A stretch of 64,000 nucleotides of DNA from a virus. Under the pieces are notes generated by a model. It did no database searches and had not been told where the DNA came from. It saw only the letters and a program-made list of their open reading frames with translations. The stretch lies in IMG/VR virus record IMGVR_UViG_3300046376_000226, positions 1-64,000 of that record; one strand, written 5' to 3'. Position 1 is the stretch's first letter. The number at the start of each line of letters is the position of its first letter. A program made the position numbers and the translations under genes. Shown here piece after piece: positions 3,458 through 44,317 of the stretch.

Positions 3458-5272
3458 TCAGACATCCTGAGAGAAGTCGACATACGCGGTTTTTTCCCGG
3501 TGGCCGATGTTGCCTGTGGGCTGTCTCAGCACTGCTCGGTTGCTGCCGAGCATGCTTGCTTTCTCCGGACCGTTAAGCGCACAGATATGGCACATCATGA
3601 CTAAGGCATCCGCGATATCCGGGCTCCAGCCCAACCGATGTCTAAACTCTTTCTTGGGCTCCAGCCGGATCCGGGGCTTACCGCTGGGGCCCTTAGTCGC
3701 GGGCTGATACCGGCGGCCGCTAAGCTCCTTAAAAAGCTGGGCCGTAAGGATCTGGGGATGGAACGCCAGGAACCCGAATTCCAGAAATTTCCGGACTCTT
3801 AGATACATCTCGACCGCGATCCCGTCACAGATCTCGACCGCGAAGTCATGATCATCAGCCAGGATTTTTAAGGGAGTGGCTTCGGCGCCCCACATGACTC
3901 CGCGCACGAGCGGGCTCCATTGCTCGACTAATGCGTCATGCGGGCCGGTGCCGACCCCGGTCCGGTCACAGGCTGTCCATTCCGGGTGAATATGTAAGCC
4001 GGTAAGCCGAGCTTCGATTGAGTTCGCGAGCGCGATGGTGCGCTCCTGAGGCATCTCGTAGTATTGTTCGGCCTGGACACAGTAACGCGGCTTCTTCCAC
4101 AGAGTAGGCTGCCCGTTAATGGGCTGGAACCCGATGGCGCGTCCGTATTTGCCGACAAAGGCAATGATCCGGCCGCCGCCGTCACTGGCTAGATCGATCC
4201 CGGCGCAGCCCACCGTGCGCTGGTCAAAGATGAATTGGCCGACCACCGCTTCCAAAAGCGAGTAAGCAATCAGGGTCGATTGCAGAGCCGAGAGCGGATA
4301 CATGGCCCTGCCAAAGGTCAGGTACTTCGGACTCTGGCCCCCCAGCTCGAGAGCGAACTTTTGGTAACCGTCCCAGGTCAAAAACCCGGGGTAAACCAGC
4401 GTCCGCTCTATCACGTTCTCGCAATCGATCCCATCCAGGCGCAGCACATGCCAGCGCTCGCTCGATACCCATTCCTTGTCGGTATCCAGGTTGAGAGTGG
4501 TCCAGCCGTTCACCGGCTCGGCCAACTGAGCCAGTTTCGAGGTTACATCGCGGGGGTTAGTCGCACAGAAGACTTTTACCGCTTCCGGGCCCCAGGCAGA
4601 GGCCAATAGGTTACTGACCCCCTCCCAAACTCCGCTCGGTATTTCCTCGGCCTCATCAAGAAGAGCCCGCACCCGGCTCATCGCCCCGAAGATCGGGTGC
4701 GGACGTTTTCTCGGGACGGGATGGAATCCTTGGAGCACCCCACGTCCATCTTCGCCCTGTGGGATCGCAACCAAGGTGATTGCTGAGTGCCGGTCCTTGG
4801 GATTAAGGCCCACGAAACCGTCCATCGAAAGCCCGGGTAGGGGCACAATGGCAGCCTGGTAAAGCCGTTGCAGGGTAGAGAACGACTGGCTCTTAGCGTG
4901 GCCGCCGGTCGTCGAAATGATCTTGATCTCGGTATGCTCTGGATCCCGGATCCAATCTAAAAGGGTATAGCAGATCAGGGTATAGGTTTTACCCATGGCG
5001 GCTGCCCCCAGGACGATCATGTTCTGGGTCGAGCGCACGAATTTGAGCAGTTGCTGGACGGCCCTGGGGCCCCCGTTAAAGAGGGCAGGGCCCCAGAGCA
5101 GCATCCCGGCTAGCGCATAGCGCTCCGTATCCAGGAGCCGTTTAACCAGGGCCCAGATCCATGCCTTGGCTTGATCGGGCACCTGGACGCTCGGATCAAT
5201 CTCGGCTACAGCCTTGACGAGTTCTTCGTCAGAGCACTCGCCGCAGGCTCGCCGGAATTCGAGCAGGTCCAT
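3458..5272 (-). CDS. terL: Terminase large subunit
   Basis: Walker A GAAAMGKT, Walker B LLDEAEE, coupling motif ATNP, RNase H-like nuclease motifs GIDLASDG, DRTGVG and SPDIADA. Confidence 0.9.
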   Translation of the reverse strand: MDLLEFRRACGECSDEELVKAVAEIDPSVQVPDQAKAWIWALVKRLLDTERYALAGMLLWGPALFNGGPRAVQQLLKFVRSTQNMIVLGAAAMGKTYTLICYTLLDWIRDPEHTEIKIISTTGGHAKSQSFSTLQRLYQAAIVPLPGLSMDGFVGLNPKDRHSAITLVAIPQGEDGRGVLQGFHPVPRKRPHPIFGAMSRVRALLDEAEEIPSGVWEGVSNLLASAWGPEAVKVFCATNPRDVTSKLAQLAEPVNGWTTLNLDTDKEWVSSERWHVLRLDGIDCENVIERTLVYPGFLTWDGYQKFALELGGQSPKYLTFGRAMYPLSALQSTLIAYSLLEAVVGQFIFDQRTVGCAGIDLASDGGGRIIAFVGKYGRAIGFQPINGQPTLWKKPRYCVQAEQYYEMPQERTIALANSIEARLTGLHIHPEWTACDRTGVGTGPHDALVEQWSPLVRGVMWGAEATPLKILADDHDFAVEICDGIAVEMYLRVRKFLEFGFLAFHPQILTAQLFKELSGRRYQPATKGPSGKPRIRLEPKKEFRHRLGWSPDIADALVMMCHICALNGPEKASMLGSNRAVLRQPTGNIGHREKTAYVDFSQDV

Positions 5273-5656: not shown

Positions 5657-5750
5657 ATGCGCAACGTAGGCTATCGGCGCGCCGCCGATGCGCAACGTTG
5701 CGGTATCGGCGCGCCGCCGAAAAATTCGTTGATTTCCAACTAGTTACAAC
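5657..5750. repeat. Tandem pair of dispersed intergenic element ATGCGCAACGTTGCG-(T)ATCGGCGCGCCGCCGA
   Basis: Two tandem copies here; related copies at ~26896-26954 (inverted), ~28555-28587 and 44275-44307; partial copies at ~15016, ~20341 and ~44890. Confidence 0.8.
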
Positions 5751-8844: not shown

Positions 8845-8856
8845 AAAGCATGCTTT
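8845..8856. promoter_or_regulatory. Palindrome AAAGCATGCTTT (putative operator, copy 1 of 5)
   Basis: Identical 12-bp palindromes at 8845, 8943, 15026, 15180 and 16691. Confidence 0.6.
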
Positions 8857-8899
8857 TTGGGTGGAAGCGAGTCGTTTAGCACGGGATTTTTCAAATCGG

Positions 8900-9319
8900 C
8901 TATTTCGGAGGCAGTCTTCGACGTTTAGGTCGCGGTTCCAGCAAAGCATGCTTTTTTACTGGCGTGTCGCCCAGTGCGGGATTTTTCAAATCCAGTTCCA
9001 GTACCCGGGCAGCGGCTAGGCAAAGGTCACGAAAAGCACGGTCTAGCGTTTCTTGGCTGGGATCATCCTGGGGCAGTGGCAACTGGACTGTCACCGAGCG
9101 TTCGCCCTGGGGGCGCCGCAGGTTCGGCACCGTCGAGAGTGGCATCAGGTCTTCAGTGAAACGGGTAGGTAGCGCTCTGGCTGCGCCGGAGTAGAGCTTA
9201 AACTGGTAGGAGTCCGGGAAATACTCGCAATCGATGTAATGCCCCAGCTTTGCCATCCAGGCATGGAGCTGGCCGGTCCACTTGGCATATACCGCGTACA
9301 GCTCCTGGGGATCATTCAC
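8900..9319 (-). CDS. Hypothetical protein
   Basis: 139 aa, overlaps the upstream gene. Confidence 0.55.
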   Translation of the reverse strand: MNDPQELYAVYAKWTGQLHAWMAKLGHYIDCEYFPDSYQFKLYSGAARALPTRFTEDLMPLSTVPNLRRPQGERSVTVQLPLPQDDPSQETLDRAFRDLCLAAARVLELDLKNPALGDTPVKKHALLEPRPKRRRLPPK

Positions 9320-11139: not shown

Positions 11140-11212
11140 CAGGCCGGGAAGGATTCGAACCTTCAGTCGGCGGTTTTGGGGACCGCTGCTTTCCCTGTTA
11201 AGCTACCGGCCT
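11140..11212 (-). tRNA. tRNA-Trp(CCA) with C at position 33; no encoded CCA end
   Basis: AGGCCGG TA GCTT AACAGGGA AAGC A GCGGT CCCCAAA ACCGC CGACT GAAGG TTCGAAT CCTTC CCGGCCT G; all four stems pair. Confidence 0.9.
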
Positions 11213-12614: not shown

Positions 12615-13790
12615 CTACCATGGTTTGGCTTGCTTGTGGAATGCGATCGCGGCTTCGAACATCGCATAATCGGCGCGCTGGAGATCGTTAGCCTCATCCC
12701 AGCCTTCCCGCACCTTGGGTAACCACTGGTTCTCGATTACCTGGAGTTCGGCCTGGTTCAGCTCGGAGATTTTGCGCTTGTGATACTTCACGTGCGTTAC
12801 CCCCAGGATCACATGGTCGCGCCAGGGCGGCTCCGGCGGCGCGGCAGGCGGGCTCATATCCAGCTCGTTGTCATCGGGGCTTGGCCCCATCCGTTTCTCG
12901 GCTTTCTGCGGCTCAACTGTTTGCGGCTTAGGCGGCTCTACGGGTTTAGGGGGCAGCTCATGGACAGTAGCCGGTTGAGCTGCTTCTTCTGGGGTAGGCA
13001 ACGGTTTCTCGGGTTGTAACGTGGTCATGTTAGGCGGCAGAGGCGCTTTAGCCAGCTCCGCTTCGCGTTCCCGGTTACGCCGGATCTTTTCCTCGTCCAG
13101 CCCTAAGGTCTCGGTGTCCGTCTCAGCGTCGGTGATGTTACTGTCCAGTTCTTCCCGGATATAGATGTTGGACAACTGGTCAGGGAAGGCACCGCGCAGC
13201 GCTGCTGCTTTGGCGCATTTGCCCAGCATATAGTCGTCCATCTTGGACCAGAACTCTGAGACCTCCCATTGCTTCTTTTCCTGGTTCCAGCTCTGCCCGA
13301 CGTAAGCGTGCCAGCGGGCGATCCCGATCTCGGGGTGCGCCCGGTGCCGGTGATGGACGATTGCTCGAGCGGCGGCAGGCGCGTTCTCGAATAGCCATTC
13401 GGTCAGCCATTTAACTTCGCCGGTCCCTTCCTCCGGAGGACCCGCCCAGGCGATCTCGCACCCGTTGTAGTCGCCGGTCCGGGTGGCTACGGCCGTCAGG
13501 CCCATGATGCCGGTGACGATCACCAGCGTAGGCACCTTTTTCGTATTACCGTTCTCGTCGCGCACCTTTTGATAACGTCGGGTGGCATAGATCTGTTTAG
13601 TAAACGGATCCAATTTGGTACGCTGACAGACGCGGATAAAACTCTCAGCCTCGTCCTCGGGGAACTTGGCGAGCATCGTTCTTTTCAGTAACTCGACCTC
13701 TTCTTTGGACAGGAAATCGGGCATCGGGGAGAACTGTGGGGTGTAGGTTTGGGCTATAGGATAGGATTGCTCCTGTGGGGCGAGATTCAT
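12615..13790 (-). CDS. bet: Phage recombination protein Bet/RecT (single-strand annealing)
   Basis: FIRVCQRTKLDPFTKQIY...TGIMGL...W.KM..YMLGKCA.AAALRGAFP..LSNIY..EE. Confidence 0.9.
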   Translation of the reverse strand: MNLAPQEQSYPIAQTYTPQFSPMPDFLSKEEVELLKRTMLAKFPEDEAESFIRVCQRTKLDPFTKQIYATRRYQKVRDENGNTKKVPTLVIVTGIMGLTAVATRTGDYNGCEIAWAGPPEEGTGEVKWLTEWLFENAPAAARAIVHHRHRAHPEIGIARWHAYVGQSWNQEKKQWEVSEFWSKMDDYMLGKCAKAAALRGAFPDQLSNIYIREELDSNITDAETDTETLGLDEEKIRRNREREAELAKAPLPPNMTTLQPEKPLPTPEEAAQPATVHELPPKPVEPPKPQTVEPQKAEKRMGPSPDDNELDMSPPAAPPEPPWRDHVILGVTHVKYHKRKISELNQAELQVIENQWLPKVREGWDEANDLQRADYAMFEAAIAFHKQAKPW

Positions 13791-14629: not shown

Positions 14630-14980
14630 TTAGGTAGTTGGCACCGAGTCGGCTTGTAAACGTTGGAACGTTTCCCAATAGTCTTCAACGGCTTGTTCCA
14701 GGACCTCGGCCTGGGCAATAATGTCCTCACGCATTGCCGGGAAATATTCATCCAGATGCGCGCGCGCATGTTTCGCCGCGCGCAAAAGTATCGTGCGCAA
14801 CCCGGCGGCCTGAGTGAAACGGAAGTAGCGACACTCCATCACCGGAGTGCATGAACTTAAGCCTCCTACCCCTTTAATGTGATCTGCCAGGGGGGCGATA
14901 GCTCTGCGCAGCGCCGCGATTTCCTCGGGCGCATGCCGGTAAAAAATGTGCGCGTCGATGATCCTATTTTGCACGTCCAT
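14630..14980 (-). CDS. Hypothetical protein
   Basis: 116-aa ORF with upstream AGGAG. Confidence 0.5.
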   Translation of the reverse strand: MDVQNRIIDAHIFYRHAPEEIAALRRAIAPLADHIKGVGGLSSCTPVMECRYFRFTQAAGLRTILLRAAKHARAHLDEYFPAMREDIIAQAEVLEQAVEDYWETFQRLQADSVPTT

Positions 14981-15092
14981 CTCCTTAGGATCAATCGTAG
15001 CATGATGGGCTTAGCATGCGCAACGAAAGCATGCTTTAAGGTTAGCTTTTTTCTAAGCGCGCCAAGGCTAGTTGTGCGAAAGACTTACCCAG

Positions 15093-15165
15093 AGCCAGAG
15101 TCAACGAGAAACCCGTATCCTGAGAGCGAGCCATCCTGGTTGAAGAGACCCATGAACGCTGAGCG
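15093..15165 (+). repeat. Orphan 2-unit TIGR-like mini-array
   Basis: AGCCA gagtcaacg AGAAACCCG tatcctgag AGCG AGCCA tcctggttga AGAGACCCA tgaacgctg AGCG; same grammar as the main array but on the opposite strand. Confidence 0.8.
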
Positions 15166-15197
15166 TTAGCTTTTGGAGTAAAGCATGCTTTTTTGGA

Positions 15198-15461
15198 CTA
15201 AGCCAGGTACCCGTTAGCTCGAGCCCAGGCCGGTGAATCATGTATCCGGCGGTGACAATCGGTGCAGACCGCGATCCAGTCCCCGGTCCGGTTGAGCTGG
15301 GCTCCGATCCGGCCCGCGCGATGATGGATCTGGGTGGAGCGTCGCGCGTCGCATAGCTCGCACCGGGGATGGCTAGCCAGATGCCCTTGCCGCTCTTTTG
15401 CGTACAGGCGAAGCGCCCTGGCGCGCTTGGGACTAACGTGCCGGAGGGGGACGCGTTTCAC
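15198..15461 (-). CDS. Small HNH endonuclease
   Basis: CELC...QIHHRAGR...IAVCTDCHRRIH. Confidence 0.85.
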   Translation of the reverse strand: MKRVPLRHVSPKRARALRLYAKERQGHLASHPRCELCDARRSTQIHHRAGRIGAQLNRTGDWIAVCTDCHRRIHDSPAWARANGYLA

Positions 15462-15672
15462 TTCCGGAAGAGGCCGATATCCGGGTCAAACAGGATCCCC
15501 CAGATCCCGATCGCGATGGCCAAAAAGCCTATCCCTGCCAGGCACAACTCGGCGGCATTATTCGGTAATGGAATCATAAGCCTGAGAGTACTTGGCCGCT
15601 AGATGCATGGCTAATTCTAAAGTGAGCCGGGCCCCAGTTTCAGCAAGCCCACTATACTGGGTCATTCCTTCG

Positions 15673-16125
15673 TCATCCAGGTCCGGGTTGAGTTGTTGGT
15701 GGCGCAGCTGGCTTAGGTGATGGCGGGTCACCTCCGGCGCAACCGCTATCATGAAGTCCCTGACTAGTTCCAGTTGCTTGGTCGTCTCCATAGACAGGGC
15801 GAGGCATGGGCTCGTCGAGAGGTTCCCATAACGTAGCGTAGGGTTCAGGGCTAACATCAATCGGCGGGAAAAATTGGCAAACCCAGGCTTGGTCATCGAA
15901 GAAAAGGTCCCGTGCCTGCCGCAGGATATGGTGCCCCGGAGGCGTCGCCGTCAAATTAGCTGAAGTGTGCCGGACTAGAAGCCTGCGCCAGCCCTCGGAG
16001 TCCGAGAGAGTTATCCACCAGATGTCGCCAGAAATGGGCACTAGGAAGTGTCCATTCCAGCCATCCACCTCTGAGCCCCCGCGCCGCCAGCGGTTAGCTC
16101 TGATTAGCTTTTCGAGCAGGGTCAC
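15673..16125 (-). CDS. Hypothetical protein
   Basis: NGHFLVP...SDSEGW...RDLFF...VCQFFP pattern; plausible phage ORF. Confidence 0.55.
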   Translation of the reverse strand: MTLLEKLIRANRWRRGGSEVDGWNGHFLVPISGDIWWITLSDSEGWRRLLVRHTSANLTATPPGHHILRQARDLFFDDQAWVCQFFPPIDVSPEPYATLWEPLDEPMPRPVYGDDQATGTSQGLHDSGCAGGDPPSPKPAAPPTTQPGPG

Positions 16126-16550
16126 TTTCTGGGCTTTACCTTTTGAATAACCTCTTTGACTGCCTTGCGTTCCGCAGGCATTAGCGCGGCCAGGTGCCGC
16201 GCCCGCCGCGCCGCCCTGGCCTCGGCCCTGGCTGCTGCCCGAGTCGCCGGATCTCCGGCTACCCCGAGCGGGTCCACATAGAGGCTGGGATCAGGTCGTT
16301 CCTCCAGAGTTTCCAGGGCTAGGAATTCTGCCCGAGTCGGCACCGGATACCGGTCCAAATGTTTTTGCAGGAACTCCCCTATATAGATACTGTCCGCACC
16401 TTCGCGCAGTCGCTTGATAGTGTCTTTTTTGAGACTGCAAGTGACATAGCCCCAGGCATCTTTATCCGGTTTGCCCTTCCTGCCTGCCCCCAGGCGTGAG
16501 CCGCCTCTCCCGTTTTTCCGTTTCTTGATCATTTTTAATTTTTTGGCCAT
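16122..16550 (-). CDS. Putative DNA-binding protein
   Basis: RGGSRLGAGRK motif followed by an RHH-like segment. Confidence 0.55.
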   Translation of the reverse strand: MAKKLKMIKKRKNGRGGSRLGAGRKGKPDKDAWGYVTCSLKKDTIKRLREGADSIYIGEFLQKHLDRYPVPTRAEFLALETLEERPDPSLYVDPLGVAGDPATRAAARAEARAARRARHLAALMPAERKAVKEVIQKVKPRK

Positions 16551-16710
16551 AAAAGATCCGATAATAAAATGTTCGTAATGCCGCTGGGTCAGTAATCGTG
16601 CCTTCCTTGCGGTTGGCTAGACGATAGCTGATTCCGCTGGAGCGTGCCTCTCTAACCGTCGAAAGCGCGCGCCAGTCTAGCATTTGGATGAAAGCATGCT
16701 TTTTTCCCAC

Positions 16711-16917
16711 TTATCTTAGATTATTAAAAAAGGGTATGGTTGTGATCTGGTAGTTTCCCACTGGATGGGTTTCAATCCAGGTCCGGGCCGCTAGTTCGCT
16801 CGAAAAGCCGAGCATGGCGAAATAGACGCCAGGGAAAGTGGGACTTTCCCTTTCCACCAGGTAGACGGTCTGGCAGACCGTCGCGATATCGTAGTTGAGC
16901 AGTGAATCAGTTTTCAT
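16711..16917 (-). CDS. Hypothetical protein
   Basis: 68-aa ORF. Confidence 0.45.
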   Translation of the reverse strand: MKTDSLLNYDIATVCQTVYLVERESPTFPGVYFAMLGFSSELAARTWIETHPVGNYQITTIPFFNNLR

Positions 16918-17108
16918 TTTAGGAAAGTCCCGAGCAGGGTTCCCACCTGCGTCTCCCGGCGTCAGCCGGACTATTTTACGCTTTATCCCAGTCTCCGGTC
17001 GAAGGCTCCCAAGATTCTCTATTCTGCGTAGCTACTGCATTTCGATACGTCTCAGTGTTGCAACGTGCCTCGAGTCGGTGACCGGCTCAAAACTATCGGA
17101 ACGCCACT

Positions 17109-17148
17109 AGCCTAAGGCCGGACATTTGAATTGTCAAGGGCTAATCAA
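17109..17148 (-). promoter_or_regulatory. Repeated sigma70-like promoter cassette (copy 1 of 6)
   Basis: TTGATTAGCCC-TTGACA-17 bp-TAGGCT. Confidence 0.75.
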
Positions 17149-17960
17149 TTAGGAGGGGGAATGATGCCGTCATGTCCCAGAACCTGCCCTACGTAAGGTC
17201 CTCTCACCGGCAGGCCGCGCGCCTTCCTACCCTCTCCCCAGTAGTGGACCAGGAAAATTTTGACGGCGCGGCGGCGCGCCTTGTTGTCGATGTGAGCGTC
17301 AGAGAGCTTACCCTCCAGTAGCCTGGTTTTCGTAACCGTGTCGTCCCGCCAGTTCTTGGTTGCGAGCAGCTCGGCCGCCGCTTTTTTGTAGTGGCCGGAC
17401 TCATTGCGCCGGATCTCCTCGGCCTTGAACTCCCGATACAAGCCGCCGTAAAAACATTCCTCCTGCCCCGAAAATTTGACAAACGAATCGCCAATTTTCC
17501 AGCAGAGGGTCTTCAGCCGGGAGTTGTATTGCAGTTTCTCGCCTTTGATCCGGCGATCGAAGCCGGGAGCCAAGCCCGCAAACTTCCAGAGCGCCGATGG
17601 ACTGTTCGCTTTGCTAATGTCGATATGCGCGGCTAAGCCAGCTGCTAGGACCGGGCCGATACCGTACTGAGAGTAAGCCCAGCGGGATTCTACCGGCGCA
17701 TCGCTCTCTACCCATTTCTGCAACTTAGCCTGGATAAGCGCCTCGCCAAAATGCAAGTACTCAAAGAACCAGGCATCGAGATCCCGTGGCTCTTCCGTTC
17801 GTTTTTTGGCGGCATGCCGTTTCCGGTGCTCCTGACAGTCGTAATATAGTTCGACGATTCGGGCCACACTTGAGGCTTCGATTTCGTAGGCTTTTACAAT
17901 CTCATTGATTAGGTCATTGCGCGCTAGTTTGACTAGTTCCTTGTGTTGTTCTTTTTTCAT
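17145..17960 (-). CDS. tasA: TIGR-associated Nop-domain RNA-binding protein, nuclease-less TasA type (IS110 Transposase_20-related)
   Basis: N-terminal coiled coil (YYDCQEHRKR), then GIGPVLAAGLAAHIDI...SALWKFAGLAP...YNSRLKTLCWKIGDSF...HIDNKARRRAVKIFLVHYW. No RuvC/DEDD or HNH domain and no IS110 catalytic SG motif. Abuts the 36-nt dual-spacer array. Confidence 0.85.
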   Translation of the reverse strand: MKKEQHKELVKLARNDLINEIVKAYEIEASSVARIVELYYDCQEHRKRHAAKKRTEEPRDLDAWFFEYLHFGEALIQAKLQKWVESDAPVESRWAYSQYGIGPVLAAGLAAHIDISKANSPSALWKFAGLAPGFDRRIKGEKLQYNSRLKTLCWKIGDSFVKFSGQEECFYGGLYREFKAEEIRRNESGHYKKAAAELLATKNWRDDTVTKTRLLEGKLSDAHIDNKARRRAVKIFLVHYWGEGRKARGLPVRGPYVGQVLGHDGIIPPPN

Positions 17961-17961
17961 T

Positions 17962-20170
17962 CGCTCTTTCGCTATGGGTGTCTCTGTTTCGCTGGCTCGC
18001 TCATTCCGTATTGGGTGTCTCTTTCTTTTTGGCTCGCTCCTATGCTATGGGCGTCTCGGTTTCGCTGGCTCGCTAATTCATGATGGGTGCCTCTATCTTT
18101 TTGGCTCGCTAATTTGTTATGGGCGTCTCGTATCTACTGACTCGCTCATTCGCTGTGGGTGCCTCGTTCTTATTGGCTCGCTTCCGCTCCTGGGGCGTCT
18201 CTGGATTCGCGGCTCGCTCGTTTACGGTGGATGTTTTTTGGTATGTGGCTCGCTCCATTGAAGTGGCTGACGCTCTTCCAACATGACTCGCTCACGGCTT
18301 TCGGATGTCTCGCGAACAATGACTCGCTCCATTGAACTGGTTGTCTCTTTCATCATGGCTCGCTCGTACGCTCTGGATATCTCTCTTTTAGCGGCTCGCT
18401 CATTTTCGATGGGTGGCTCAGCTGCTCTGACTCGCTCGCGTATCGTGGATGGCTCGTGGGCAGCGGCTCGCTCGCACTCTCTGGTTGTCTTGTGGTTCAG
18501 GGCTCGCTCGCTGCTGATGGGTGTCTCATATGGTGTGGCTCGCTCGCGGCCCTTGGTCGTCTCATTAATTTTGGCTCGCTCTTTTGTGGTGAGTGTTTTT
18601 CCTTTTGCATGGCTCGCTCGTTCATCACGGTTATCTCTCGTAGAGTGGCTCGCTCCTGTCTGTTGGGTGCCTCTTAAACCTTGGCTACTGCATTCCTCCG
18701 CTTGCGATGTATGGGGTTCTCTATCCGTTCGACTCGCTCCTCGTCTTTTGGATATCTCGTCAGGGCTGGCTCGCTCTCACCTTTTGGGGCTCTTCATCGA
18801 CAATGGCTCGTTCCCCGGCTTTGGGTGTCTTTTACGGATTGACTCGCTCATCTTTAAGGTTGTGACTCAATGGTCATGGCTCGCTTCTTATTTCTTGGGT
18901 GTCTCTTGCCAGTTGGCTCGCTCCTAGAATATGTGGCTCTGTTCGGTTCCCTTGGCTCGCTCTCATGCGATGGGGTTCTCTCACCATACGGCTCGCTATT
19001 CCGTCTCTGGGCGTCTCCGGTATTGTGGCTCGCTATTGTCCAATGGGCGTCTTATGGATTCTGGCTCGCTTCTCATTGCTGGTTGTCTCGTATTGCTCGG
19101 CTCGCTCCAACTTAATGGGTGCCTCATCTGCTTGGCTCGCTCTCTTCGCGCGGTTATCTACAATCGCATGGCTCGCTCATCCGCGATGGGTTGCTCTTTC
19201 TGAATGGCTCGCTCCCATGCCTTGGGTATCTCACTTTGCTTGGCTCGCTCTTGCGTTATGGGTTGCTCGTCATGGATGGCTCGCTCATTCATTTTGGGAC
19301 TCTCTTTTGCCATGGCTCGCTCTTTACATCGGTGGGATAGCTCTTCTGATTTGACTCGCTCGTTCTGGTTGGATGGCTCATCAGGGTTGGCTCGCTCTTC
19401 CGTCTCAGGGTTTCTGTTTTCTCATGACTCGCTCTATTTGAATGGGTGCCTCTACAACCGTGACTCGCTCGCCTATTATGGGGTGACGTCCTCTTGATTG
19501 ACTCGCTCTCTCACTTTGGGTTTCTTGCTTGGCGCGGCTCGCTTAAGCTCTATGGGTTTCTCCTTGGTGTTGGCTCGCTCATTGTGCTTGGATGGCTACC
19601 GAATCAAGGCTCGCTTTCTTTTCTTGGATATCTCTCGATTAATGACTCGCTCCTCTCAATTGGGTGACTCTTCGAGAATGGCTCGCTAGTTTATCCTGGG
19701 GTTGCTCTTCTTGTAGTGGCTCGCTTTGTTTTCGCGTGGATGATTCACCTTCTGTGGCTCGCTCTTCATTTATGGGGTTCTCACGCAGGCTGGCTCGCTC
19801 GCACATGTTGGGTATGGGTAATCTCGCGTAGTCCGGCTCGCTCCAATGATTTGGGGTTCTCTATCGCTCTGGCTCGCTCCCGCTCTGTGGATGGCTCGTT
19901 ACCTATTGGCTCGCTTGTGATTCATGGGCGTCTTGCACCATTTGGCTAGCTCCTTTCGAATGGGCTCCTCAAGTTTCATGGCTCGCTTGTATATTGTGGG
20001 ATTACTCCGAGGGCTTGGCTCGCTTTACAGACGTGGGTTGCTCCGGGTTCCTGGCTCGCTCGTGACATATGGGCGTCTCGTACCTATTGGCTCGCTCGTT
20101 TATCCTGGGTTGCTCCTAATTGATGGCTCCGCTCGTTCGGCGACGGTTGTCTTTTGGGGCTCGGCTCGCT
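17962..20170 (-). ncRNA. TIGR array: about 60 units of 36 nt, AGCCA-N9-AGACRCCCA-N9-AGCG
   Basis: Manual parse of the + strand: CGCT-N9-TGGGTGTCT-like-N9-TGGCT with period 36 (range 35-43). Two conserved motifs alternate with two variable 9-mers. Confidence 0.92.
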
Positions 20171-20517
20171 CTCCGAAAACTTCGTAGAGCTTGCCGCCAA
20201 AAGACAGGTCATTTTGATTGGTTTGGACCCAATCATATTCTCTGATAATTACCATAAAAAATGCCCTTTTCGACCCCCGCTTTAAACGCACCAGGTTGAC
20301 CGCAGGCGCGTCGCAAGGCCGAGCAGGTGCATTGGACCTGTGCGCAACGTTGCGCATCCTGGGGCATCCTCGAGCGTTTGTGGGCCATAGCCAAATGATG
20401 ACATGTGTCAGGGTTTGCGCCTGGTTAAGTACTCCGAAAGCGCGATCAGCGTGAAGTACAAGATGATCGCCAAGGCACCACTCAAGAACCCTAGAAGGAA
20501 AGTGGTTACATCCATAC

Positions 20518-43724: not shown

Positions 43725-44180
43725 GTGAGCGTAGAGCAATACTACGCTAGCTTGATGAACCAGCAGGCCCAGGCGGCTCAGCAGCCTCCCTGGCTTAGTG
43801 GTTACGCTAACCAGTACGGTAACCTGCTCCAGCAAGCTCAGCCGTTCCAGCAGGAAGGACTACAAAATGCGGCTGTTATCCCGGATGGGGTCGAACTGGA
43901 TTTCGAGGGTGACCGGTGCGGTAAATCCTACCGGATCAAGCAGAACTGTATTAAGAGCTGGGACATCTATTTCTACGACTGGCACGAGGGGGGCTGGTAC
44001 CAGTTGCGCGACTACGGGGTGACCCAGAAGCGAACTGAAGCGATTGCGGCCTGCAATCAGCATGCGCGCGACTATAAGCTGATCGATTTCCTTCCTACCC
44101 GGCCGAAGTTTAAGTCTAATTGGTATGGCGCCATCGCTGGAGCTGTTGCGTCTGCTGCGTCTGCTGCGGCTTGGATATGA
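43725..44180 (+). CDS. Hypothetical protein
   Basis: 151 aa; Q-rich N-terminus and Ala-rich C-terminus. Confidence 0.45.
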   Translation: MSVEQYYASLMNQQAQAAQQPPWLSGYANQYGNLLQQAQPFQQEGLQNAAVIPDGVELDFEGDRCGKSYRIKQNCIKSWDIYFYDWHEGGWYQLRDYGVTQKRTEAIAACNQHARDYKLIDFLPTRPKFKSNWYGAIAGAVASAASAAAWI

Positions 44181-44275
44181 TGGGGTGGGCGAGTGGTTAT
44201 AAGCCAACGGTGATACGTGACCGGTAGCATATCACCTCTGCTAGCGGTCCGCTGGTTCGAATCCAGCCCCCATCA
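44179..44275 (+). tRNA. tRNA-like element (class II type, aberrant anticodon arm)
   Basis: Acceptor GATGGGG/CCCCATC-A, D arm GGC-GAGTGGTTATAA-GCC, T arm GCTGG-TTCGAAT-CCAGC; central region non-canonical. Confidence 0.7.
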
Positions 44276-44317
44276 TGCGCAACGTTGCGCTATCGGCGCG
44301 CCGCCGAAAAACGAGAA

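Follow-up and report, generated by a model that had tools for sequence, protein, structure and literature searches.

The virus record is a single contig of 74,555 bp with a G+C content of 56%, and the whole stretch of DNA that was analysed, its first 64 kb (64,000 nt), is referred to here as the window. The phage genes include those for a terminase, tail fibres, a helicase, RecT and an exonuclease, and the public sequencing runs that contain this phage DNA are soil metagenomes. The window carries tasA and, on the same strand, a long TIGR array. In addition, it carries two complete TIGR units in the opposite orientation, which lie in the intergenic gap between a small HNH endonuclease gene and the gene o14630 and are referred to here as the mini-array. 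The coordinates of all these features are collected in Table 1.

Table 1. Features of the TIGR-TasA region and of the HNH-o14630 gap, in window coordinates
Feature	Position	Strand	Description
Mini-array unit 1 (U1), 36 nt	15093-15128	+	AGCCA, spacer A GAGTCAAC, loop repeat GAGAAACCCG, spacer B TATCCTGA, GAGCG
Mini-array unit 2 (U2), 37 nt	15129-15165	+	AGCCA, spacer A TCCTGGTT, loop repeat GAAGAGACCCA, spacer B TGAACGCT, GAGCG
Sole complete edge repeat of the mini-array, GAGCGAGCCA	15124-15133	+	U1/U2 junction; expected TasA cleavage site (Faure 2025; NAR 2026)
Hairpin followed by U-run	15161-15195	+	-9.1 kcal/mol; takes in the terminal GAGCG and the right palindrome; weak, terminator-like
Palindrome AAAGCATGCTTT, left copy	15026-15037	.	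exact; directly upstream of the -35 element of the inferred o14630 promoter
Palindrome AAAGCATGCTTT, right copy	15180-15191	.	exact; just after the HNH stop codon
10-bp direct repeat GTTAGCTTTT	15041-15050 and 15165-15174	+	brackets 42 bp and the mini-array
Inferred promoter of the o14630-exonuclease-RecT operon	14990-15025	-	TTGCGC, 18 nt, TACGAT; -35 within CGTTGCGCAT
o14630	14630-14980	-	116 aa, function unknown; first gene downstream of the gap
Small HNH endonuclease gene	15198-15461	-	87 aa; also in relatives without the mini-array
tasA	17145-17960	-	271 aa, Nop domain, no nuclease domain, Y256/H263 processing dyad
Main dual-repeat TIGR array	17962-20180	-	about 60 units of 36 nt, edge repeat GAGCGAGCCA, loop repeat GAGACACCCA

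The TIGR-TasA system of the phage

The product of tasA matches phrog_4285 at 1.8e-34 and has 760 homologues at E <= 1e-10. It also matches SpTasH of Salicola phage CGphi29 with an E value of 2e-26, and the Nop domain of SpTasH is 34% identical to it; in contrast to TasH, the Tas protein of this phage has no nuclease domain. Specifically, residues Y256 and H263 are invariant in 31 family members and align with SpTasH residues Y289 and H296, which are reported to catalyse pre-tigRNA processing (NAR 2026), the Y/H processing dyad thus being common to both proteins. Judged by its sequence, TasA is processing-competent. The available text of Xu et al. 2026 (bioRxiv 10.64898/2026.09.09.750476) describes TasA as working as an RNA-guided repressor.

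The units of the main array have the layout AGCCA-N8-GAGACACCCA-N8-GAGCG, and the array lies upstream of tasA and stops one base short of the tasA ATG. On account of this unit layout and of a nuclease-less Tas protein with an aligned Y/H dyad, we assign the system to the dual-repeat TIGR-TasA type with 8+8-nt spacers. The four units nearest to tasA (17962-18142, - strand) represent a 72-nt block of two units that was duplicated in tandem and then diverged; this shows that blocks are duplicated as the array grows and that their spacers diverge afterwards. Compared with window positions 17967-19868, the arrays of other soil-sample contigs show unit-sized skips of 36, 73, 100 and 1270 nt. Among sister genotypes the unit content of the array turns over, and the flanking genes are 91-100% identical.

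Two detached units of the same repeat family

The mini-array (15093-15165, + strand) is 73 bp long and consists of two head-to-tail units of the same repeat family as the main array. Whereas tasA and the main array are encoded on the other strand, the nearest end of the mini-array lies about 1,980 bp beyond the tasA stop codon, on the 3' side of the gene, with five ORFs in between. This differs from the usual arrangement beside tas and on the same strand, which is typical of TIGR arrays and not a defining rule; the cognate Nop-domain Tas protein is encoded by the same element. The initial annotation had described an orphan, inverted two-unit mini-array on the + strand, about 2 kb from tasA, that starts exactly at AGCCA and stops at a unit end, and the sequence, the measured distance and the profile scores given below all agree with this description.

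Both units follow a 5+8+10/11+8+5 layout, as expected of a dual-repeat unit of about 36 nt, and AGCCA and GAG, which contain the box C (CCA) motif of the 3' end of a repeat and the box D-like (GAG) motif of its 5' end, are present in every repeat of the mini-array and flank the spacers. Both units retain all strongly conserved positions. The U1 loop repeat ends in CCCG, with a G where at least 90% of the array units carry the A of box C, a variant that also occurs in a few main-array units. The mini-array resembles SpTIGR, the array of the SpTasH system, which, in the available text of Faure et al. 2025 (PMC12045711), likewise has a 36-nt unit and alternating edge and loop repeats ending in CCA (box C); the 8+8-nt spacers of SpTIGR correspond to the 16 variable nucleotides that each mini-array unit distributes over two spacers. 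Compared with the dual-repeat arrays described in the same text, the mini-array differs in that it has two units, lies on the opposite strand, is five genes away from tasA and has no recognisable promoter.

Profile searches with three different models place the two units at the level of the main array. A three-block position weight matrix (PWM), in which the spacer length is variable, gives 29.2 bits for U1 and 26.5 bits for U2, against an in-array median of 28.0 bits; the best other site in the 74.5-kb genome reaches 15.2 bits, and in 30 shuffled genomes the top score lies between 10.5 and 22.5 bits. With a gapless 36-column PWM made from main-array units, U1 scores 29.5 bits (in-array median, 30.4 bits; next match in the genome, 8.7 bits). 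With a sequence-only, calibrated Infernal model built from 36 array units, U1 scores 16.0 bits (E = 0.0014), which ranks it in the lower third of array units, and is the sole full-length match outside the array. The initial annotation had named a shuffled-sequence test as a possible refutation, and its outcome, with no shuffled maximum above 22.5 bits, lends chance no support.

The block is also found in DNA assembled independently. Positions 15116-15322 are matched without a single difference by a 207-nt contig that comes from another soil study. A further soil study supplies a 210-nt contig that spans both junctions (14994-15194) and departs from the window by 14 substitutions and a 1-nt deletion at 15134; in this sister genotype, which is about 7% diverged, the deletion would shorten U2 to 36 nt. 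A chance resemblance or an assembly chimera, for which the short length of the feature and nothing else would speak, is practically excluded. Specifically, chance is ruled out by the PWM scans, the shuffled genomes and the Infernal model, because two adjacent, in-register units score at array level, the shuffles never come near them and U1 alone reaches an E value of 0.0014, while a chimera is ruled out because contigs from two other soil studies span the junctions. The mini-array certainly consists of genuine dual-repeat TIGR units of the phage's own repeat family.

The spacers of the mini-array are absent from the main array, where the initial annotation had not seen them either, and the nearest half-spacer there differs at two to three of eight positions. 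A comparison with the arrays of relatives yields three half-spacer matches at seven of eight positions, about three being expected by chance. The idea that U1 and U2 are swapped versions of each other gained no significant support: U1 spacer B and U2 spacer A share ATCCTG, with p of about 0.05 over eight comparisons. Also set aside was a + strand ORF that runs through the units (14879-15169), which is without a homologue. An Rfam search returned nothing for the mini-array.

The HNH-o14630 gap in this phage and its relatives

The outer edge repeats of the mini-array are truncated exactly at the unit boundaries (AGCCA at the left end, GAGCG at the right end), and the flanking bases, CCCAG|AGCCA and GAGCG|TTAGC, match the missing half-repeats at one and zero of five positions, respectively. 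Truncated outer edges are the normal start and end of TIGR arrays in the available text of Faure et al. 2025, and the arrays of more than 20 relatives likewise stop at GAGCG. An attempt to align the two flanks as parts of a longer duplication failed, as the palindrome alone aligns. A promoter scan of the + strand upstream of the mini-array called no sigma-70-like site, and the 5' flank is unlike all 71 array leaders compared, including the phage's own AT-rich leader. Downstream, the hairpin has a z score of -1.1 relative to shuffles, and a consensus terminator scan made no call there.

The mini-array has the HNH gene on one side and, on the other, the inferred o14630-exonuclease-RecT promoter. 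The initial annotation had a small HNH gene ending at 15198, and an 87-aa ORF is found there. A role of this gene as the split nuclease of a TasH protein was considered and rejected, since its product does not resemble the SpTasH HNH domain and the gene is also carried by relatives without the mini-array. The motif ATGCGCAACG at 15016, which reads CGTTGCGCAT on the coding strand, is conserved in the homologous gap of the two closest sampled phages, L001 and L011, and all three phages have TTGCGC followed after 17-18 nt by a TAnnnT hexamer just upstream of o14630. This pattern probably marks a promoter of the o14630-exonuclease-RecT operon; if so, the mini-array occupies the stretch that separates this promoter from the end of the HNH transcription unit. 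At the start of o14630 (14972-14980, - strand), an AAGGAG Shine-Dalgarno sequence abuts the annotated ATG, and a GTG six nucleotides further downstream has a better spacing and may be the true start.

According to the initial annotation, palindromic operators flank the mini-array. Exact copies of AAAGCATGCTTT do lie at 15026 and 15180, but the motif is not specific to the mini-array. This 12-bp palindrome occurs six times in the genome (8845, 8943, 15026, 15180, 16691 and 70951) and is also found, with no inverted units next to it, in relatives: at 327-352 in L004, where two tandem copies lie 15 nt before the tasA start codon, at 4537 and 4943 in L001, and at 19810 in L011, after the helicase gene. 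Because of these further copies in the genome and in relatives without a TIGR unit beside them, AAAGCATGCTTT is not a feature of the mini-array; it looks like a dispersed intergenic motif of the phage family and a candidate operator for some regulator. Copies of AAAGCATGCTTT often have a T-run behind them. Downstream of the helicase gene, at window positions 8845-8990, two copies lie 98 bp apart, and GGGATTTTTCAAATC follows each of them after about 35 nt, so that the segment forms a direct repeat of about 98 bp whose copies have diverged.

Two other repeats touch the gap. For the 10-bp direct repeat GTTAGCTTTT, the probability of finding such a pair by chance in the 217-bp gap is, as a rough estimate, about 0.02, and in view of this low value the pair may mark an insertion junction. 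Outside the coding regions, a further element of about 32 bp, ATGCGCAACGTTGCGGTATCGGCGCGCCGCCGAAAA, is repeated at window positions 5657, 5688, 44275 and 26954 (- strand) and at genome position 68211, with half-copies at 15016, 20348 (- strand), 44890 and 68138. Its sites include one upstream of the TIGR leader and some near capsid genes, and it may represent a family of phage promoters or operators. One copy of the 32-bp element directly follows an odd 99-nt tRNA-like gene with a four-base anticodon call (44178-44276, + strand), which ARAGORN reports together with a tRNA-Trp (11140-11212, - strand).

To place the mini-array among its relatives, we use 80 IMG/VR loci collected with a TasA profile, three loci on metagenome contigs and 15 on genome or MAG contigs; the closest TasA relatives, P0002-P0008 (77-85% identity), lie outside this sample. 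In the 43 loci that share the edge repeat, scans with locus-specific PWMs turned up no unit on the opposite strand, the lone minus-strand match scoring 14.1 bits, which is background, against 28.7 and 26.9 bits for the units in the window. A de novo search for the loop-edge-loop pattern, which recovered the mini-array of the window as a positive control, was negative for the opposite strand of 66 other loci and of the 15 genome or MAG loci, nine of which have a detectable array. In five whole records of relatives, three of them at least 92% complete, the Infernal model found units in the main arrays alone and on one strand. The dispersed mini-arrays that the initial annotation had proposed to look for in related genomes thus did not appear: no opposite-strand unit was found in about 75 related TIGR loci or in the five whole records. 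A solitary, degenerate unit-like sequence, AGCCA-N8-GAGAAAACCA-N8-AAACG, occurs in L016 (7886-7921, + strand; 12 bits, E = 0.015); it lies in a 99-bp gap, 5.9 kb from the L016 array and on the same strand, and is either a stray unit or a chance match.

L001 (TasA 63% and helicase 75% identical) and L011 (TasA 60% and terminase 73% identical) share the RecT-exo-o14630-HNH module with the phage studied here, which allows a direct comparison of the gap. In L001 the HNH-o14630 gap measures 134 bp and has zero TIGR units. In L011 it extends over 1.1 kb, again with no units, and contains an AT-rich insert (12903-13760) with ORFs of 66 and 212 aa. These differences indicate that the gap is structurally variable, and the L011 insert points to an insertion hot spot. 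The TIGR cassette varies as well: in L001 tasA and the array are inverted as a cassette relative to the RecT module, and the array, upstream of tasA in this phage, is downstream in L001, L011 and most relatives and on both sides in some. In the available text of Xu et al. 2026, TIGR arrays occur upstream, downstream, on both sides of and even inside tas. The TasA relatives L161, L163, L164 and L169 come from the isolate Acidobacteriaceae bacterium KBS 96 and from contigs in Acidobacteriota MAG bins. Because TasA relatives are found in Acidobacteriota genomes, this phylum is the likely host phylum of the phage group.

The candidate targets that the initial annotation had proposed to search for were sought in both possible spacer geometries. 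In the available text of Faure et al. 2025, spacers A and B pair with opposite strands of the DNA, and a gap of 0-2 bp is allowed. Within the phage, the mini-array pairs have no match with one mismatch or fewer, and a single match with two mismatches is expected by chance. Related loci amounting to 1.16 Mb contain no perfect match to any of the 51 parsed pairs of the main array and the mini-array, and the complete records of L001 and L011 contain no match to these pairs with at most one mismatch. Scans of IMG/VR with the U1 site returned 43 and 31 matches in the two geometries, scattered over unrelated, mostly low-GC contigs, which we read as background for a 16-nt site of little search power; exact U1 has no match in IMG/VR. 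For most TIGR arrays, targets are unknown according to the available text of Xu et al. 2026.

Origin and possible guide output of the mini-array

We give a probability of about one half to the reading that the mini-array is an ectopic, lineage-specific copy of a two-unit block, which we infer to have originated by ectopic recombination. The landing site of the block would have been an intergenic gap prone to recombination, and in this phage family TIGR cassettes and array units appear to be gained, lost, duplicated and relocated. We favour this reading over a conserved component because the block is absent in the sampled relatives, the gap is plastic, cassettes and unit blocks are mobile, expression signals are not recognisable and each unit has a blemish (the G in the U1 loop repeat and the 37-nt length of U2); the lack of a target match was also counted in its favour. 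The mini-array does not look like a conserved part of the TIGR system. A trace of unit movement, which the initial annotation had offered as one possibility, is thus the reading that fits best, short of proof, given the absence in relatives, the variable gap and the varying position and orientation of the array. Counted against an ectopic copy are the intact conserved positions, the hairpin plus U-run, the retention in two other soil genotypes, one of them about 7% diverged, and the ends at exact unit boundaries, which speak against a stray copy because random deletion rarely produces them.

Those same points lend some weight to a functional, separately transcribed guide gene, which would supply two guides in trans with a timing or level differing from that of the 60-unit array and which we regard as a tentative alternative. 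Such a gene would have a + strand promoter within 15027-15092, possibly under a palindrome-binding factor, and a transcript of about 120 nt reaching to the hairpin and U-run. The operator-like palindromes on both sides make activator-dependent transcription of the + strand possible, and because TasA keeps its conserved Y/H dyad, guides in trans are possible as well. In cis, the block keeps most of what a guide gene needs, namely intact units with canonical truncated outer edges, one full edge repeat, box C/D-like motifs and a weak hairpin/U-run, a recognisable promoter being the part that is missing. In the available text of Faure et al. 2025, engineered arrays of one to three units, the same size class as the natural mini-array, were processed in heterologous tests into Tas-bound tigRNAs; these minimal arrays, however, needed full edge repeats, whereas both outer edges of the mini-array are truncated and there is one full edge per unit. 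The persistence of the block in two further soil genotypes, and the RNA-guided repression by TasA proteins in the available text of Xu et al. 2026, would also suit a guide gene. Against it stand the absence of a promoter-like site, a 5' flank unlike any array leader, a hairpin no stabler than shuffles, the lack of any target match and the absence of the block from all sampled relatives, including L001 and L011. The proposal of the initial annotation that the units are separately regulated guides acting in trans therefore holds as a possibility, given the dyad and the canonical ends, but finds no backing in a promoter, a leader likeness or a target, and the hairpin is weak. If the + strand is transcribed, TasA, encoded 2 kb away, would cut the central edge repeat by means of its Y/H dyad and could then load two extra 8+8-nt guides in trans, and the loaded complexes would bind DNA and repress rather than cut. 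From what can be read in the DNA, we put the chance of a biologically meaningful guide output at about one in three.

Three further readings are weaker. It is unlikely, in our estimation, that the block is the footprint of TIGR unit copying or moving caught in the act, even one that may still be an independently regulated guide pair; this reading draws on an exact two-unit module whose ends are tigRNA processing sites, on its reverse orientation, on the bordering 10-bp repeat and on a gap that differs in every relative, and the route would be either the relocation of blocks cut at edge repeats or RNA-templated copying. Quite improbable is a role as a recombination substrate, in which an exchange between the mini-array and the main array would invert 15166-17961 (the HNH gene, four small genes and tasA) and uncouple tasA from the array as a switch. 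The mini-array and the main array do form an inverted repeat, the orientation of tasA relative to the RecT module varies among relatives, and RecT and an exonuclease are encoded beside the site, but the shared identity is merely 10-13 nt per repeat, the inversion in L001 affects the tasA-array cassette alone and not the HNH-containing segment, and no strand-changing joint was seen in four metagenomes, in which contigs hide rare forms. Hardly credible, finally, is an antisense or anti-repeat RNA, in which read-through of the HNH gene on the minus strand would produce the complement of the units; like a tracrRNA, this transcript would pair with pre-tigRNA edge repeats, or it would titrate them. 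All neighbouring genes are indeed on the minus strand, and no minus-strand terminator lies between the HNH gene and the gap; however, the complementarity to array transcripts is confined to the 10-nt repeats, dual-repeat Tas proteins use the Y/H dyad, which this TasA possesses, to process their own guides, and the mini-array is not conserved in relatives.

Viruses are known to carry mini-CRISPR arrays and solitary repeat units that are very short, have their effector genes at a distance or lack them, and are thought to supply guides in trans. The mini-array differs from these in belonging to another RNA-guided system, with a Nop-domain Tas protein and dual spacers, in that the effector is encoded by the same phage and in that no competitor target was found. 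Within the TIGR literature, which began with the first description of TIGR-Tas systems in 2025, the available texts of Faure et al. 2025 and Xu et al. 2026 make no mention of detached, opposite-strand mini-arrays; published TIGR surveys, as far as these texts describe them, look beside tas genes, and that of Xu et al. covers the surroundings of tas loci. Both texts acknowledge the gain, loss and movement of units as an open question.

The value of a single case is limited, as the mini-array is small, is not conserved beyond sister genotypes and has no identifiable target. A detached two-unit block with exact boundaries nevertheless indicates that blocks of units can leave an array and persist elsewhere in a phage genome. 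If the mini-array is expressed, guides would need neither co-transcription with tasA nor a place in the array. Furthermore, if the block is indeed a footprint of units being copied or moved, it would bear on how TIGR arrays gain units without adaptation genes.
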